From a virus (lineage: Duplodnaviria > Caudoviricetes): a stretch of 26,348 bases of DNA. A program made the position numbers and the translations under genes. Below, one piece after another: positions 6,611-26,348 of the stretch; positions within the stretch are counted from its first letter, which is position 1; each line of letters starts with the position of its first letter. The DNA is taken from positions 1 to 26,348 of the IMG/VR virus record IMGVR_UViG_3300027804_000198; one strand, given 5' to 3'. The notes beneath the pieces were generated by a model that did no database searches, had not been told where the DNA came from, and saw only the letters and a list, made by a program, of their open reading frames with translations.

Positions 6611-7159
6611 TTATCCTACGAATTTATTTTGTTTTCTTAATTTGAATAACTCCAAAGGAGTTAAATCGTTGTAATTTTTAGTTACTGTTTTGTTGTTAGC
6701 TTCTAAGTTTAAAGCAACTGAGTTTTTATCGATTGATTCAATAGCACTCAAAGCAACTTGTAAACCTTTTTTAGTTTCACTTAATTGCGTTTCTAAATTA
6801 GTTTGCTTTGCAGCGTAACCTTTTTCTAATGCTTCTAAGCGGCTTAATATTGCTTTCATTTCGTCTTCTAATGGCTCAGGTTGTACGTCAGCTTCTTTTG
6901 CTAAAATTTCAGTAATAACACCAGCTGCACAAATAACCTTAGTACCGTCAGCAAGTTCAAATTCACCTTCTGCTGGAACAGCAACACCGTCAGCGCCAAC
7001 AAATGAAGCCATTGCGCCTACTTCCATTTTGTCAACTGATAACATAGTGCCATCAATTAAAGCAACGTCTTCTAGTTTTACTACTTGAGTTGCTGGTAAT
7101 TCAATACCTAATTTTAATAATGCTGATTTTAAAGCATCTTTAGTTTCTTTTGATAACAT
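6611..7159 (-). CDS. Capsid scaffold-like protein
   Basis: 182 aa, acidic, with a PAEGEFELADG motif and C-terminal coiled coil, between the protease and capsid genes. Confidence 0.6.
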   Translation of the reverse strand: MLSKETKDALKSALLKLGIELPATQVVKLEDVALIDGTMLSVDKMEVGAMASFVGADGVAVPAEGEFELADGTKVICAAGVITEILAKEADVQPEPLEDEMKAILSRLEALEKGYAAKQTNLETQLSETKKGLQVALSAIESIDKNSVALNLEANNKTVTKNYNDLTPLELFKLRKQNKFVG

Positions 7160-7191
7160 ATTTAATTTAATTTAATTTAGTTTCGTTAATA

Positions 7192-7218
7192 TAATATAGT
7201 AAAATATTTACTTTTTAC
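7192..7218 (-). promoter_or_regulatory. Candidate phage late promoter, copy 2
   Basis: Plus strand TAATATAGTA (7192-7201), 11 nt, then TTTTAC (7213-7218). Confidence 0.7.
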
Positions 7219-7811
7219 AAAATATTTTTTATGATAGCTTCAATCTCGTTTTGATCTAATTCAATTTCTTGTTCTAAGTCAAAGAAACCCTCTAAACTAA
7301 CACCTTTAACTTCACCGCTTTTAATGCGTTTCCAAATGTCATCGTTGTTAATTTTCATTGAACAAAAGATAGTGCCATCGGGTAAATCAAAACCATCGGG
7401 CTGTTTAATGCCTCTACTAGCATCACTAATAAATACTTCAAATACAAACACACCTTTTGATAGGTCGCTTGTATCATGCGTTAATTTTACTTTGCGTTGG
7501 TTTCCGTCAAGCATATACTTTTGTAATATTTGCATATTGGTTTCCTTTTTATACACTACATAAAATTCTTTGTCATCGACTTTACGATAGATAGGTAAGT
7601 CCGCAACAATAACTGGAGCTGTTATTATTCTTTGCTCTTCTTGTAAAGCAAATTTAAACTCATAGGGTTTCTGCTCGCTAAAAGCTAAAAACTCAGTAAG
7701 CATAGCAGGGCTATCCACTAATGCAATATTCTGTATCCCTTGTTCTTTTAATTCTAAGCCCGATAAATCTTCGTTAATCGTAGCGTAGTAAATTGGTAGT
7801 TTATTTTCCAT
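7215..7811 (-). CDS. Prohead serine protease, XkdF-like (Peptidase_S78_2-like)
   Basis: Motifs IALVDSPA, EQRIITAPV, LTHD, DGTIFCSMKINNDDIWKRIKSGEVKGVSLEG. Confidence 0.75.
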   Translation of the reverse strand: MENKLPIYYATINEDLSGLELKEQGIQNIALVDSPAMLTEFLAFSEQKPYEFKFALQEEQRIITAPVIVADLPIYRKVDDKEFYVVYKKETNMQILQKYMLDGNQRKVKLTHDTSDLSKGVFVFEVFISDASRGIKQPDGFDLPDGTIFCSMKINNDDIWKRIKSGEVKGVSLEGFFDLEQEIELDQNEIEAIIKNIL

Positions 7812-20919: not shown

Positions 20920-23256
20920 TTAAAATGTATTATTATCAGTTATTAATTCAATATATCTTTGTCCCATACTATCCTGGCCTTTGGTTAATTCAATTTTATT
21001 AAATATACAATATTTCTCAACCCACCCCCAAAACCGCTTAGTTGATAGGTTATATTTTTTAAAGTCGGGATATTCCTCAATAAATATATTATAAATCATA
21101 TTTTTATTTAATCGTTCATTTTCTTTTAAAGTATCTTTATTAGCCCACTCATAAAATTCAAATGAAGTTTCTTTAATGTACTTCCTTATTTCTAAGTTCA
21201 CATATTCATAACTTACCAGACCATTAACTAAATACATTTGCATACATTTAACCATGTAATTATAAAAGTTAAGCCATTCGTTATTATTCCATTCATCAAA
21301 AAACATTCTGCCAAACTCATTAAGCGGAGTGTGTTTGTGACTAAAATAACTACTAAACTCAATCTCCCACTTTCTACGTTCAAATGATCCACCAACACCA
21401 CCAACAGTATAATTAGTTGTTATAATTATTTTAGGACTTCTGCTAACTGGTATCTTAATTGCATCCTTATTCTTTTTCTCTAAAGTTATGCCCTCAGTAA
21501 TTACGCTAAATAGATTTTCAAATTTAAAGTTTTTTTGTACATCATCAAATACTAATATCTGAGTATCGGCTGAAACTGTTTGATAAGGGAATGATTTTTC
21601 AAAACTAAATGATTTACCATTAATATCTGAAACCCTTTTTACTTTGCTTAGTGCATTCCAAAAAATACCCTTACCGCTACCGCCATTTGGATTCTCGCTA
21701 ATTGTTTCATCGTTTAATATAATAGCTTTATTATTTGCAGAAGTTTTAAAGGAGTGCATTAAATAACCAATAGTTGAAGTAATTGAGTTTACTTTGTCCT
21801 CATTCTTATTTGATATTAGTTCTATGAATTTACTGAAGTCACAATTAATATTATCAGTAATCTTAAAATCAAAATCAATAATGTGCTTTTTCCATACAAA
21901 ACCATCCAATTCTAAATAATCAATCAATTCAATATTATCGTATGTAACCTTTACAGCAGCATTCCTAAAATAAATATAACCAGTATCAATAGTGTCTTCC
22001 TTAAAAAAAATATTAGATTCACTTAAAATATTAAGGTAGTCATCTTTAAAATACTTTTGGTTACCAGCCATGTACTCATAAACTTTATGTTCATCCTGTT
22101 TAAGTAATTCATTCAATACATAATCTTTAATCTTAACTTCGTTTGTGTTATCAATTAAATTATTAGTAACCTTAACAAATATAAATGATTCGGAGTTCTC
22201 AGGGTAATATTTATAAAAACCATTTGATTCTAACCATAGCTTATAAAGATAATTTTCAATCTTAATACCTTTTTTAGTATGTACCCAAAAATCATTTATA
22301 GTTACATTTTCTTTAATTTCATTCAATACCCTTTCATCCACATTTGGCATTGATTCCTTAATTTCTTTAATCGTAGTTCCGGCCTTTAACTTAATAGATA
22401 TTTGTTTTAAAGTTTCGCTATCTTCAAAAAACTTCATACCAAAGTTAGATTTACACTTTGAGTAAGCTGAGCGTATCACTTTATCAATTTCATTAGCAGT
22501 AAAATCATTTGTAATAAACTGGTTACAAAATCGGTTAGTTTCTGATTCACTAATACCATAATCACTAAACGCCGATACCAATATAAATAAGTTATGGTTT
22601 CTGCTACCTTTGGCCATTGAATAAGATTTATTAAACCAGGACCATAAACGTTTTATAATTTCGCTTTCATTTTCTAATTTAATAGTTGGCGCATGATACC
22701 TATAATCAAATTGTTCATCCTCAATCTTTTCAGTCCATAATTCACTATCTTTATTAATATAAATATTTGGATCGTAGCTTTCAAAACATATCCTGCTTAT
22801 ATTTTTAGAAGTAGTATCAAAGTGAGTATTATCATAATATTTCTCTAAAGCATCAAAATACTTTTTATGATTCTCAATATCCTTAGGAATTTTAACAAGT
22901 AGCTTTATACCTATTCCACTAGGACTAATAAACATTGCAAAAGTATATTTATCTTTTTTTAATATTTTTAAATCAGCATCTAATAATTTTACTGATTCGT
23001 ATTTATCAAAGTCAAGGCAAACTAACCCACTATGTTCCGTAATGGAACTATCTGCTCTTTTTATAAATATTCCACAAAAACAAATGGCTGGTAATGTTGC
23101 TTTGATTTCATCTGCTAATTCTTTAGTTGGCTGCTTTCTAATTTCATCAACTATCAATTTAGATTTACCAACTTTAATTCTATTTAAAATAAAATCAATA
23201 TCCTTAATAAAAGGGGTATTGGTATTGTGTAAATTTTTAAATATTGTTACATTCAT
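20920..23256 (-). CDS. Primase-helicase: VirE-N/BT4734-like primase, PriCT-like domain and SF3/D5-like ATPase (start revised to ATG at 23256)
   Basis: KATLPAICFCG, HSGLVCLDFD, FISPSGIGIK; GSRNHNLF; Walker A GGSGKG, Walker B ILVFDD, IIITTN, SFERR. The ORF-track start at 23301 lies inside an RNA hairpin. Confidence 0.85.
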   Translation of the reverse strand: MNVTIFKNLHNTNTPFIKDIDFILNRIKVGKSKLIVDEIRKQPTKELADEIKATLPAICFCGIFIKRADSSITEHSGLVCLDFDKYESVKLLDADLKILKKDKYTFAMFISPSGIGIKLLVKIPKDIENHKKYFDALEKYYDNTHFDTTSKNISRICFESYDPNIYINKDSELWTEKIEDEQFDYRYHAPTIKLENESEIIKRLWSWFNKSYSMAKGSRNHNLFILVSAFSDYGISESETNRFCNQFITNDFTANEIDKVIRSAYSKCKSNFGMKFFEDSETLKQISIKLKAGTTIKEIKESMPNVDERVLNEIKENVTINDFWVHTKKGIKIENYLYKLWLESNGFYKYYPENSESFIFVKVTNNLIDNTNEVKIKDYVLNELLKQDEHKVYEYMAGNQKYFKDDYLNILSESNIFFKEDTIDTGYIYFRNAAVKVTYDNIELIDYLELDGFVWKKHIIDFDFKITDNINCDFSKFIELISNKNEDKVNSITSTIGYLMHSFKTSANNKAIILNDETISENPNGGSGKGIFWNALSKVKRVSDINGKSFSFEKSFPYQTVSADTQILVFDDVQKNFKFENLFSVITEGITLEKKNKDAIKIPVSRSPKIIITTNYTVGGVGGSFERRKWEIEFSSYFSHKHTPLNEFGRMFFDEWNNNEWLNFYNYMVKCMQMYLVNGLVSYEYVNLEIRKYIKETSFEFYEWANKDTLKENERLNKNMIYNIFIEEYPDFKKYNLSTKRFWGWVEKYCIFNKIELTKGQDSMGQRYIELITDNNTF

Positions 23257-23262
23257 ATAATT

Positions 23263-23344
23263 AAAAAACCCATGCCGTTGGAATGGTGGTTCCGCGAGCA
23301 ATGGGTTAATACTTTAGTTAATTTAGATAGCATCCACCAATGCC
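23263..23344 (-). promoter_or_regulatory. Structured 5' leader: two hairpins with complementary loops plus a U-tract
   Basis: Transcript reads GCAU-UGGUGG-AUGC ... AACCCAU..GGAA-CCACCA-UUCC..AUGGGUU-UUUU. Confidence 0.6.
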
Positions 23345-23354
23345 TTAACTTCTG

Positions 23355-23386
23355 CAAATATATAAAACATTTTTAATATAAACAAA
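23355..23386 (-). promoter_or_regulatory. Bacteroidota-type housekeeping promoter (leftward)
   Basis: Minus strand TTTG (23383-23386), 20-nt spacer, TATATTTG (23355-23362); matches the -33 TTTG / -7 TAnnTTTG consensus. Confidence 0.75.
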
Positions 23387-23396
23387 TTTATTTTTA

Positions 23397-23526
23397 AATA
23401 ACGCTTATAACGGATTAATAACGCTTTAACAACGGATTGCTTTGTACTGATACCAACACTTACAACGGAATAACGGATTGACTTCGGCAAAAACGAGAAA
23501 AAAAACACACCTAGTAAAAAAACGCT
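23397..23526. repeat. Iteron-like short direct repeats (candidate replication origin)
   Basis: AACGGA at 23409, 23431, 23464 and 23472; AACGCT at 23400, 23420 and 23521; non-coding and next to the primase gene. Confidence 0.5.
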
Positions 23527-23698
23527 ATAAGGGCAATAGGGGGGTAGTAACCTGTTATGTGTTATTCAACAGTTGCGCAACACCTGGCGGCCCATCTCAT
23601 ACAAAAACTATTACATTGATAATCAAGCAGTTACAAATTATTTTCATTTATTTTTAGTTTTGGGCCATAATATATTTTTTTATTAATTAAATAGTGTA

Positions 23699-23706
23699 TA
23701 CATTTG
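23699..23706 (+). promoter_or_regulatory. Possible rightward Bacteroidota -7 element
   Basis: TACATTTG about 30 nt upstream of ATG 23737; no correctly spaced -33 TTTG seen. Confidence 0.5.
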
Positions 23707-23736
23707 TATCATATTAATAACTTAAAAACTAAAAAC

Positions 23737-23901
23737 ATGACAACAACAGAAAAAAGAATTAATGATTTAAAACATGCAATGGAAATTGAATTAGTAAATA
23801 ATTTTCCTAATGGTGATTTATGGAATAAAATGTCTGATGAATTAGATGAGTTACAAAAAAAACCAAATACATTTGAAATATTATCATCTATACTTAAATA
23901 A
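23737..23901 (+). CDS. Hypothetical early protein, 54 aa (start revised to ATG at 23737)
   Basis: MTTTEKRINDLK..., preceded by the A-rich AAACTAAAAAC. Confidence 0.6.
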   Translation: MTTTEKRINDLKHAMEIELVNNFPNGDLWNKMSDELDELQKKPNTFEILSSILK

Positions 23902-23952
23902 CTAAACAGGGTGCAGCATCTGAAAAACTGCAATAACTAAAAAACAAACAAC

Positions 23953-24138
23953 ATGGAAATTCAGTATAATAAAAGGTATTTACTTGACGATTTAGAATTA
24001 CAATTAAAAAGAAAAAATGAAAACGTTTATACATTTAACGTTATGAATAAAGAAATGACAGTTAACATTTATGGAAATGTTGTTTATAATACTTGTATAA
24101 TTTCAAAAAGAATAAACGAATTAAAACTAAAATCATGA
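23953..24138 (+). CDS. Hypothetical protein
   Basis: 61 aa ORF with an A-rich leader. Confidence 0.55.
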   Translation: MEIQYNKRYLLDDLELQLKRKNENVYTFNVMNKEMTVNIYGNVVYNTCIISKRINELKLKS

Positions 24139-24284
24139 AAACAAAACAACCCAAAACAAAAGTTTATCCGATCCGTTTAGATACGGTATTATTAAACCAG
24201 GCACACAAAGTAATTGAGCCATCAGAATTAAGACTGAGAATTAAAAAGAAAATTAATAACTATTTAAAAACTTTAAACAAATGA
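24135..24284 (+). CDS. Small basic protein, possible ribbon-helix-helix DNA binder (start revised to 24135)
   Basis: MKTKQPKTKVYPIRLDTVLLNQAHK..., a beta strand followed by two helices; ATGA overlaps at both ends. Confidence 0.45.
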   Translation: MKTKQPKTKVYPIRLDTVLLNQAHKVIEPSELRLRIKKKINNYLKTLNK

Positions 24285-24358
24285 TACCTTTAATATTTTT
24301 AATAGCAATTATATCAATTATTAACTTTATGTATAGAGAATGGAAATCGCAACAATAA
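24281..24358 (+). CDS. Possible 25-aa membrane peptide
   Basis: MIPLIFLIAIISIINFMYREWKSQQ; ATGA overlap with the upstream stop. Confidence 0.4.
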   Translation: MIPLIFLIAIISIINFMYREWKSQQ

Positions 24359-24432
24359 TAAAAGCCGAATGGTGGGATAACTTTAATTTTGAATTATACA
24401 TTAAATATTTAAAAGCTAAAAGTAAAATATAA
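24340..24432 (+). CDS. Possible 30-aa protein whose stop codon is the TAA of the first TAAC site
   Basis: MEIATIIKAEWWDNFNFELYIKYLKAKSKI, stop at 24430-24432. Confidence 0.45.
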   Translation: MEIATIIKAEWWDNFNFELYIKYLKAKSKI

Positions 24433-24557
24433 CGTTTGCAGCTACCCGATGAAGGGGATTTTAACAACTAATCTAAATAAAAAGATATGAACGATAATAT
24501 AACTACTAAACTTTCCGAAGACAACACTACCCCCCTTTGTCGGGTAGGTGGTGTTAT
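24429..24557. repeat. attC-like imperfect hairpin site 1
   Basis: ATAAC-gtttgcag-CTACCCGA-tg-AAGGGG ... CCCCTT-tg-TCGGGTAG-gtggt-GTTAT. Confidence 0.75.
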
Positions 24558-24993
24558 GCCTTCGTGCTTTCTTATTCACTAATAATTTAATAACAAAAAT
24601 ATGAGCAGACAATTAAAATTCAGGGCTTGGGATGCCGAGCAAAACAAAATGATATTCACTTTTGATGGTGAGTATAAAATCATGGTAAACAGCGAAGATG
24701 GAACACTATTTTGTGGTGGTCATTTACCTAATGGAGATTGGAACGAACCACCATTGATGCAATTCATTGGCTTAACTGACAAAAAGGGAAATGAAATATT
24801 TGAAGGTGATATTGTCAAAACGAACACCGACAAAGCAATGGTAATAGGTTGGTCAGATAGACACGCTTCATTTACAATTGAAAGAGAAGGATGGGCTTTT
24901 CGTCATTATTTTGGTGAAGCAATGGAAGCCAATGAATGTGAAATTGTCGGGAATGTTTATGAGAACTGGGATGTCTTACAGCATGAGGCATAA
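24433..24993 (+). mobile_element. Putative gene cassette 1 (hairpin plus YopX gene)
   Basis: GTTATGCCTTCGTGCT (24553-24568) is nearly the reverse complement of AGCATGAGGCATAAC (24980-24994). Confidence 0.6.
24601..24993 (+). CDS. YopX family protein
   Basis: KFRAWD...LMQFIGLTDKKGNEIFEGDIV...EIVGNVYEN. Confidence 0.88.
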   Translation: MSRQLKFRAWDAEQNKMIFTFDGEYKIMVNSEDGTLFCGGHLPNGDWNEPPLMQFIGLTDKKGNEIFEGDIVKTNTDKAMVIGWSDRHASFTIEREGWAFRHYFGEAMEANECEIVGNVYENWDVLQHEA

Positions 24994-25039
24994 CGGACGC
25001 TAGCTAAGCCCTCGTTTTAATGGGGCTTAGGTTGTGTTA
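24991..25039. repeat. attC-like imperfect hairpin site 2
   Basis: TAAC-ggacgctag-CTAAGCCC-tcgttttaatg-GGGCTTAG-gttgt-GTTA. Confidence 0.75.
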
Positions 25040-25499
25040 CTTGCTGGCGGTACAGAATGCTGCTATAAGACTTTAATATAAAAAATATAGATATGATAAA
25101 TGAAAATGAAATAAGAGTAGGGAATATGTTTGAATATTCGGACAAGCATCCAGAAGCTAATTGTATGTTAGGAATACCAATGGTATGGACTGATGTAGAA
25201 TGGTATAGATTAGGAGATTGTATTGAAGATTTAGATTATTACAATCCAATAAAATTAACCGAAGATTGGTTATTGAAATTTGGATTTGAATGCTATGAAT
25301 TTGATAATGGAGAACCAAACCAATATAGATTTAAAAGTAGATTAATAGTAATAAGAAATGGATTTTTTTATGATTATGGAGCAGACGTTAAAATCGAATT
25401 TGTACATAAATTACAGAATTTATACAATGCTTTAACAAACGAGGAATTGGCAATTAGTAGATAAAAAATATTACTGACACCGCCACCGCTTGCAGGTAA
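24994..25499 (+). mobile_element. Putative gene cassette 2 (hairpin plus hypothetical gene)
   Basis: GTTACTTGCTGGCGGT (from 25036) is complementary, with a bulge, to ACCGCCACCGCTTGCAGGTAAC (ending 25500). Confidence 0.6.
25093..25464 (+). CDS. Phage hypothetical protein
   Basis: 123 aa with the motif pattern EIRVGN...PIKLTEDWLLKFGF...FVHKLQNLYNALTNEEL, which I recognise from Bacteroidota phage hypothetical proteins; function unknown. Confidence 0.7.
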   Translation: MINENEIRVGNMFEYSDKHPEANCMLGIPMVWTDVEWYRLGDCIEDLDYYNPIKLTEDWLLKFGFECYEFDNGEPNQYRFKSRLIVIRNGFFYDYGADVKIEFVHKLQNLYNALTNEELAISR

Positions 25500-25535
25500 C
25501 TACTCGCTAAAACCAATAAAACAATATCAATAACA

Positions 25536-25718
25536 ATGCAACTACTTAAATATAAAAAGGTTATAGGTTTTACAGAAACTCAAAAAAAAGCCTTTGAAAC
25601 CTTAGAAGATTATGGTATAAATGTAAACCATTTTATCCGTTTGGCAGTGAAAGAAAAACTACAAAAAGACTGGAAAACAATTAAAGAAAATAAACTAAAA
25701 ACTAAATGCCCTTTTTAA
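25536..25718 (+). CDS. Ribbon-helix-helix-like DNA-binding protein
   Basis: KKVIGFTETQKKAFETL...INVNHFIRLAVKEKL fits the CopG/Arc beta-alpha-alpha pattern. Confidence 0.55.
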   Translation: MQLLKYKKVIGFTETQKKAFETLEDYGINVNHFIRLAVKEKLQKDWKTIKENKLKTKCPF

Positions 25719-25719
25719 T

Positions 25720-26058
25720 ATGCTAAAAGAAATTCAATCACTCGAGGACCAGTTAATCTATTCATCAAATTGTGGTAGTAGTAGCTTATTATTTACCGTT
25801 ATGATGCACCGTACAAGCGAATGGATAGAAAGTAACAAGCCAAATGAAAAGCTACACATTAGCCCTTTTAAGGTAGAATTAGACAAGCAAGTTGACATGG
25901 TGGCTTACTACATTGAATGTGGTTACATCTTTGATACAGCTGTCAGAATGATCGGTAAAAACACTAGCGATTTTAGAAAGCAGTTAACGGACACGCACAA
26001 TTATATTATACAAGCTGCAAGAAAACAAAGAAAAATAAATAAACTAAAAAACAAATAA
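25720..26058 (+). CDS. Hypothetical protein
   Basis: 112 aa ORF contiguous with its neighbours. Confidence 0.6.
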   Translation: MLKEIQSLEDQLIYSSNCGSSSLLFTVMMHRTSEWIESNKPNEKLHISPFKVELDKQVDMVAYYIECGYIFDTAVRMIGKNTSDFRKQLTDTHNYIIQAARKQRKINKLKNK

Positions 26059-26061
26059 AAA

Positions 26062-26295
26062 ATGGAAACAAAAAACAATTCAGGAGCAATCTTTAAAAAC
26101 AACAAAACAAAAGAAAGCCAGCCCGATTATCGTGGAAAGGTAAAAGTAAACGACAAAGAAATGGAAATATCTTTGTGGGTAAAAGAAAGCCAAACAGGCA
26201 CTAAGTATTTTAGCGCATCGTTCCAAGAGCCATTTGTTAAGCCAACTACTACTGAGCCTTCAGTAACAAAGTCATTTGATGATATGCCTTTTTAA
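26062..26295 (+). CDS. Small ssDNA-binding-like protein (DUF736-like)
   Basis: NSGAIFKN...QPDYRGKV...ISLW...KYFS, with an acidic SSB-type tail DDMPF. Confidence 0.6.
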   Translation: METKNNSGAIFKNNKTKESQPDYRGKVKVNDKEMEISLWVKESQTGTKYFSASFQEPFVKPTTTEPSVTKSFDDMPF

Positions 26296-26297
26296 TT

Positions 26298-26348
26298 ATG
26301 GAAAAATTATATAGATTAGAGTTTAATGAAACAACTCAACAATTTCAT
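26298..26348 (+). CDS. Partial ORF running off the right end
   Basis: MEKLYRLEFNETTQQFH..., starting 2 nt after the previous stop. Confidence 0.4.
   Translation, partial: MEKLYRLEFNETTQQFH

Follow-up and report, generated by a model that had tools for sequence, protein, structure and literature searches.

A two-cassette array of attC-like hairpin sites in a phage contig and its probable link to a Bacteroidota tyrosine recombinase

Results

The phage contig and its small-ORF region

The window analyzed here, 26,348 nucleotides in length, is an entire viral record, with a completeness estimate of 82%. A profile search of its ORFs found that the minus strand codes for portal, terminase, tape measure, and methyltransferase proteins as well as a primase of the BT4734 type; from about 23,700 onward, small ORFs occupy the plus strand (Table 1). 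The family of the primase, matches to the sites described below in Bacteroidota genomes, and homologues of the ribbon-helix-helix (RHH)-like gene in Flavobacterium and Polaribacter phages all point to a host within Bacteroidota. At the start of the small ORFs lies the candidate −7 box of a promoter whose consensus we take to be that of Bacteroidota. It has an imperfect −33 box alongside in the window, and both boxes are fully matched in four of five relatives. This candidate promoter would drive the small-ORF operon through the array, which starts about 730 nt further on, so that an entry site at the far end of the array would be promoter-distal. A scan with the consensus sigma-70 promoter only gave matches at chance level.

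Three further observations concern the contig as a whole. Between the primase start and the early promoter (23400-23480) are six repeats with an AACG core, four of them AACGGA, spaced by 8-33 nt; they lie near the turn of the cumulative GC skew and may mark a replication origin. A conserved 49-aa ORF (24135-24284), for which the family search gave no match, looks by eye like a second ribbon-helix-helix protein. Finally, two neighboring ORFs of 198 and 182 aa (6611-7811) match consecutive halves of phrog_24921, a maturation-protease-like family, and are possibly a split gene.

Table 1. Features of the cassette array and its flanks in the window
Feature	Position	Strand	Remarks
Candidate −7 box, Bacteroidota-type promoter (presumed consensus)	23699..23706	+	Imperfect −33 box alongside
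Resident 30-codon ORF	24340..24432	+	Fixed left flank; stop is the TAA of the first TAAC
attC-like hairpin site 1, 127 nt, long class	24430..24556	+	Relatives diverge here
Cassette 1, 561 bp	24433..24993	+	Hairpin 1, outer arms, and YopX-family gene
31-codon leader ORF	24487..24582	+	Start inside the loop of site 1
YopX-family cargo gene, 130 aa	24601..24993	+	PF09643, E 6.5e-23; phrog_98; stop is the TAA of the second TAAC
attC-like hairpin site 2, 49 nt, short class	24991..25039	+	Hairpins 92-95% identical in L075 and L108, in other contexts
Cassette 2, 506 bp	24994..25499	+	Hairpin 2, outer arms, and 123-aa gene; arms reused by other genes
Cargo gene of cassette 2, 123 aa, function unknown	25093..25464	+	phrog_10066, E 1.3e-17
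attI-like terminal site, AAC-N7-TA	25497..25514	+	Fixed right flank; likely entry point for new cassettes
RHH-like gene, 60 aa, weak assignment	25536..25718	+	Occupies the recombinase slot of other phages

The hairpin sites of the window

A first-pass annotation of this DNA had described two imperfect hairpins, each running from a TAAC to a GTTA and followed by one gene, and had read them as integron-like cassettes that can circularize. The motifs are where it placed them (TAAC at 24430, 24991, and 25497; GTTA at 24553 and 25036), as are the limits of the two units. It had further noted that the DNA after each GTTA is complementary to the DNA before the next TAAC; indeed, the outer arms pair within their own unit with gapped scores of 8.5 and 8.0, against 0.8-2.0 with the other unit or with the flank of their own hairpin. 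Both sites fold better on the plus than on the minus strand, site 1 at −14.3 versus −9.9 kcal/mol (z −2.0) and site 2 at −10.1 versus −7.3 (z −3.2), although the site scanner partly builds in such a strand bias. A single hairpin on its own is only modestly unusual: 300 shuffled windows yielded 45 single sites, and zero adjacent pairs.

The stems of both sites are free of bulges and their arms are offset by 3-4 nt, an asymmetry that goes beyond the classical one, as had been suspected. The length of the outer stems, in contrast, had wrongly been counted as a departure from integrons because it exceeds 7 bp; 9-11 nt is normal for classical cassettes (PMC2727003, available in part). No Rfam family reached its gathering score in the window or in 13 related loci, where E-value matches were at chance level. 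The Flavo-1 RNA motif (RF01705) was considered and rejected, with no covariance match in the window or the 13 related loci; the six true Flavo-1 loci are a different repeat.

A variable slot among relatives

Relatives identified through the RHH-like gene align to the window until 24434-24444 (one of them, along a similar hairpin, until 24485), and the match resumes at 25497, or at 25650 where the RHH-like allele differs. A 22-base pattern from the left flank retrieved seven viral and four metagenome contigs, the window among them. Nine of the 10 other contigs with this flank span the slot and carry seven alleles with 12 cassettes, one to three per allele, in lengths of 405, 968, 393 (twice), 1406, 1037, 464 (twice), and 1069 bp; the tenth is cut, yet opens with another hairpin. 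These alleles have hairpin or arm sequence in common with each other, but not cargo, and nothing significant, cargo included, in common with the allele of the window. Related phages had been expected to show either different cargo or an empty site: the former was found, whereas none of the 10 contigs with the left flank has an empty slot. The alleles of the complete relatives all switch at the AAC core, in keeping with the proposed breakpoints. In one relative (L014, 3477-4180), an additional, unclassified ORF separates the RHH-like gene from the terminal site.

Public assemblies provided further alleles. Contigs of runs X2-X4 (one study) and X5 follow the window as far as 24436 and continue in another hairpin; one contig of X3 joins the window at 25497 coming from another cassette end. 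The unit of cassette 1 occurs at about 98% identity in X6 (24547-24994, nine differences and one gap) and X8 (24624-24995, eight differences), with different neighbors and, right after TAAC, different DNA. The circle junctions that had been predicted did not appear: the assembled contigs of eight of the 20 listed runs, a kind of data that drops rare forms, contained no joint for an empty site, a single loss, or a circle. In the five joints noted in run contigs, unknown sequence separates the two sides. Named phage records gave no DNA match to the array except weak YopX hits.

What the moving unit is

We tested arm pairing in 202 distinct pairs of adjacent phage sites. When the 12-base stretch behind GTT is set against the one that precedes the next AAC, 8.66 of 12 positions match; within one and the same site the figure is 4.75, and for random combinations it is 4.67. 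Complementarity runs to the next site, as the two units of the window had suggested. We also compared 291 units, obtaining 24 homologous pairs, 18 of which are at least 98% identical; three of those were set aside as same-context. This left 15 near-identical pairs from different contexts, not every one of them independent of the others. Their upstream hairpins agree to at least 93% in 14 cases and to 83% in the remaining one, whereas their downstream sequences never exceed 62% identity. The hairpin, then, travels with the gene downstream of it, in line with the original reading. Two loci (L077 and L108) have four identical cassettes in different order, and one of these also opens the array of L002, which lies in the same slot as that of the window. 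At the level of sequence comparison, these data show that the slot is real and exchangeable, with cassettes gained, lost, and reordered exactly at AAC.

A G after GTT is accompanied by a C before the closing AAC in five of six units, and by one before the opening AAC in none of the six. This pattern indicates that the crossover lies inside AAC, for site 1 presumably within 24431-24433, which agrees with the first proposal; the sequences place it no more finely than that, and a cut at AA|C is adopted from integron biochemistry. Relatives and reordered units both switch at this core, which is where the cassette boundaries had been set. We take the comparisons to show that a cassette consists of a hairpin, an outer arm, a gene, and a complementary outer arm, bounded at AAC.

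The tie between hairpin and gene can be broken. In X6 the YopX unit follows a different hairpin, and of the six unit pairs that have diverged further, several show hairpin identity close to background, random hairpin pairs being only 48% identical. Removing the extrahelical bases of a classical attC shifts some recombination to its other end (available part of PMC2727003), and such other-end exchange would produce hairpin swaps. The two arm frames of the window likewise both turn up around unrelated genes and in company with several hairpins. This reuse bears on the first making of cassettes, for which the frames would offer a tractable handle. The frame of cassette 2 (25036-25092 plus 25465-25500; also in L342-L353) is reused, with several hairpins, by at least six other unrelated genes. 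For the gene of cassette 2 itself, a single distant relative was found, and it is without sites.

The terminal site

The third TAAC had been taken for a hairpin that retains only part of its left arm. It reads instead AAC-N7-TA, an attI-like sequence matching the site beside host recombinase genes (see below). In 14 of 15 loci this motif immediately precedes the RHH-like gene. A search with the terminal-site pattern hit 27 loci, and in 17 of them a cassette end directly precedes the match; the remaining 10 hits arose by chance, are cut short, or could not be parsed, and the left flank of the window is seen in none of them. Additions at this position can be seen by comparing loci: L313 equals L315 plus one 190-bp cassette at the terminal site, and L044 exceeds L029 by one cassette there. 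The site at 25497 is the likely entry point for new cassettes.

The left end behaves differently. An identical right end is joined to unrelated left genes, and the first TAA is the stop codon of the resident gene in eight of 13 hand-picked arrays. The empty site that had been put forward is a reconstruction, and given this pattern it may not be one conserved ancestral site; its left half may rather be a secondary target.

Site family, polarity, and start codons

Sites were collected with a custom scanner of arm pairing, which misses bulged or degenerate ones and reported no site in several pattern-matched loci. The best fit is without a bulge for 440 of 536 sites and with a bulge in the 3' arm for 32, detection being biased to unbulged stems. 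The 5' arm is 3-4 nt longer, usually with a symmetric mismatch. The hairpin-first strand gives the better core pairing at 327 of 334 phage sites, a bias partly built into the scanner. Gene orientation differs between phages and hosts: it is hairpin-first in 129 of 141 phage units and classical in 46 of 50 host units. The claim that the hairpin precedes the gene therefore holds for phages, but not as a novelty of the site, whose polarity is classical; it is the phage gene that is inverted, and host arrays are arranged classically.

An in-frame start codon lies in the loop of 82 of 170 long phage sites, against seven of 136 in hosts. Leader ORFs such as that of site 1 are fused in frame to the cargo gene in other phages. 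Long loops contribute the start codon together with about 20 leader residues (window 24487-24582; L314, L318, L324, L325), and in one cargo family the N-terminus varies with the hairpin in front.

A tyrosine recombinase family at array ends

The site pattern led to 127 genome loci, mostly of Bacteroidota, 80 of them with flanks. They hold 16 tyrosine-recombinase genes in 14 contigs, and 12 of the 16 constitute one family of 315-538 aa. All 12 lie past the array end, on the minus strand, with the stop codon facing the array; the other four are placed otherwise. The end of the last cassette is 67-105 nt from the recombinase stop in nine of the 12, and the terminal site reads AAC-N7-TA in 11, the exception being L233, which was excluded from the alignment. 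A co-occurring tyrosine recombinase was among the things that the first-pass annotation had suggested looking for, and this family, at array ends in host chromosomes and with a related gene in some phages, is what we found. The enzyme and the arrays are linked by adjacency only.

We then approached the association from the enzyme. Homologues at E <= 1e-50 are present in 34 of the 101 genomes sampled in the phylum, about a third of them close. After one duplicate locus was dropped, the close set numbered 11, two from genomes already known to hold sites. Here AAC-N7-TA occurs 95-115 nt past the stop codon in eight, compared with none of 11 on the start side, used as a control, and a hairpin of the expected polarity lies within 1.5 kb in seven, with reversed polarity in none. 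The 22 distant homologues have no excess of the motif (four versus six on the control side).

In two of 107 viral loci (L080 and L105), the terminal site is immediately followed by the gene for a shorter relative of the recombinase, 42% identical to the host form over 212 aa. The cultured Polaribacter phage Leef_1 (L395, NC_062750, 4849-7864) has a related recombinase gene at the corresponding position: it carries cognate units, AAC-N7-TA, and, about 57 nt later, the annotated 'integrase'. With this full platform, it makes the system testable. The window had been described as having no recombinase in view, and this was confirmed for its relatives too: PF00589 was not found in 11 records, comprising the window (82% complete) and ten relatives, four of which are at least 90% complete. 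No recombinase or HUH family was found among the 34 window ORFs scanned. Given the absence of PF00589 in these records, the recombinase would be supplied in trans, by the host or by a co-infecting phage.

The candidate enzymes have PF13495 and PF00589 domains with the catalytic motifs kept. Against the IntI model TIGR02249 they score 189-208 bits, under the cut-off of 265, with a split match in six of six, and they are about 43 residues shorter than IntI4 at the place of its insertion. Their best sequence matches are archaeal XerA, and in a structure comparison the best fold match of the modeled host enzyme is Vibrio IntI4 (2a3v). They resemble simple tyrosine recombinases of the XerA/XerC/XerD type in domains and catalytic motifs, but differ from them in scoring below or at the family cut-offs and in standing at the head of cassette arrays.

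The 70 N-terminal residues of the host recombinase bear a weak likeness to HARP, XPB, and UvsW domains by three methods: a profile match to the HARP domain of SMARCAL1 (4o66, E 0.008), a HARP-like match at Foldseek rank 1 (E 0.08), and a match to XPB with a VIA Z of 7.1, below the caution line of 8 (rmsd 1.5, 53 aligned). This HARP/DUF5710-like domain (minus strand of L223, 11005-11214, and homologues) is absent from the phage forms. A look-up in the ESM Atlas returned only unnamed Bacteroidota clusters, below 0.9. The likeness to HARP is a lead, to be read as such. The domain is apparently multi-copy in L209 and L243.

Discussion

A probable mechanism and its alternatives

We consider it likely that the window contains a two-cassette array whose units pass between phages through exchange at the AAC core, probably catalyzed by a tyrosine recombinase of Bacteroidota that lacks the IntI insertion and would be supplied in trans. 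By analogy with integrons, the plus strand would fold as single-stranded DNA and be cut at AA|C. Exchange between two hairpins would release a circle whose outer arms make the site whole, and exchange between a hairpin and the terminal site would insert the cassette beside the RHH-like gene. With the phage genes set in reverse with respect to the sites, an incoming cassette would join at the end far from the promoter and be read from the upstream phage promoter. Long sites would often lend their start codon to the cargo, and occasional exchange at the GTT end would leave hairpins swapped. Both the enzyme and the single-strand mechanism are inferred, and the handling of folded DNA by an enzyme without the insertion is a candidate activity only.

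The system resembles integrons, above all sedentary chromosomal arrays and CALINs, in many respects. Its cassettes hold one gene each and are bounded at an AAC/GTT core in which G follows AAC; the outer arms are cognate, and the imperfect hairpins are strand-asymmetric; a tyrosine recombinase adjoins a simple site at the array end; and whole units are gained, lost, and reordered at one core point. Could it be an ordinary CALIN, its attC sites classical and mobilized by a genuine IntI encoded at another location? The shared core and arms would fit, and HattCI called one member of the site family, P12002L_attC1 of Polaribacter phage P12002L, an attC, as which it was treated in a study of phage CALINs (Qi et al. 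2023, PMC9892861, available in part). That same member, however, which belongs to a chain of cognate units, was the sole site of six that IntI1 did not recombine, and it had been delivered on the strand predicted here to be active. The IntI1-positive attC2 of P12002L is another sequence, which ends at the terminal TAAC of the array and is read oppositely. The arm offset and the rarity of 3'-arm bulges, even with detection favoring unbulged stems, also argue against classical sites, as do adjacent enzymes under the IntI cut-off. Moreover, IntegronFinder 2 reports one complete integron in Bacteroidetes proper, and integrons are described as nearly absent from Bacteroidota (PMC9024848, available in part). 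We regard an ordinary CALIN as quite unlikely.

Also quite improbable is machinery of the phage's own other than a tyrosine recombinase, for instance an RHH-like protein with an unseen nuclease, partly encoded outside the contig. The position of the terminal site just upstream of the RHH-like gene is what one would expect of it; about 18% of the genome is missing, and the search of whole relatives covered PF00589 only. Speaking against it are the 34 scanned ORFs of the window, with neither recombinase nor HUH family, and the fact that the same sites adjoin a tyrosine recombinase in hosts and other phages.

If repeated regulatory hairpins underwent homologous recombination, this would recall PeSL shuffling in T4-type phages, in which small genes bounded by hairpins are swapped in variable regions and mini-circles are likewise formed (PMC2839356, available in part). 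Hairpins and frames are indeed repeated and similar here. PeSLs, though, are promoter-terminator repeats, and no terminator-like site was found within 23250-26348. Exchange in our array is base-exact at AAC between dissimilar sites: breaks fall there even where neighbors have four to five bases in common, and also at the hairpin-less terminal site, and random hairpin pairs share only 48% identity. The recombinase beside which site polarity is fixed adds to the difference, and we find this explanation very improbable. That hairpins and arms act only in RNA (in processing, termination, or translation start), with incidental variation, is hardly credible: loop start codons occur in frame and the arms could pair around each gene in mRNA, but host genes lie on the opposite strand with site polarity unchanged, identical units are reordered base-exactly, and no Rfam family matches.

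Relation to integrons

We would class the probable recombinase-driven array as a variation on the integron principle, working like an integron, yet without the IntI insertion, without the extrahelical base, and with a different gene orientation in phages. The differences lie in the enzyme, which is short at the place of an insertion described as essential for integron function (PMC8138268) and in its host form has an extra N-terminal domain; in the sites, where the arm offset and a symmetric mismatch stand in place of an extrahelical base; and in the layout, with inverted phage genes, a promoter-distal entry site, and, in hosts, a terminal site that follows the recombinase stop codon. It is quite possible, if for now a tentative view, that these features together define a second kind of integron in Bacteroidota and their phages, characterized by a recombinase without the insertion, perhaps a HARP-like reading of folded DNA in the host form, inverted phage cassettes, loop start codons, reusable arm frames, and hairpin swaps at either end.

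If the preferred reading is true, it would reveal an overlooked, base-exact route of gene exchange between phages, explaining part of their mosaic small-ORF regions, and the IntI insertion would not be required for recombination at hairpin sites. We found no published description of this system, most subscription journals being outside the search. In the part available to us, PMC8618304 names Bacteroidota among the phyla with integrons without detail, and the available part of Qi et al. (PMC9892861) does not recognize the site family, its polarity, or the cognate enzyme. In the terminal site of P12002L (L306, NC_028924, 29239), TA is one base nearer to AAC than in the consensus. One exact 17-base pattern of the site family is estimated to occur in about 1900 archived stretches of genomes and about 290 of viruses.
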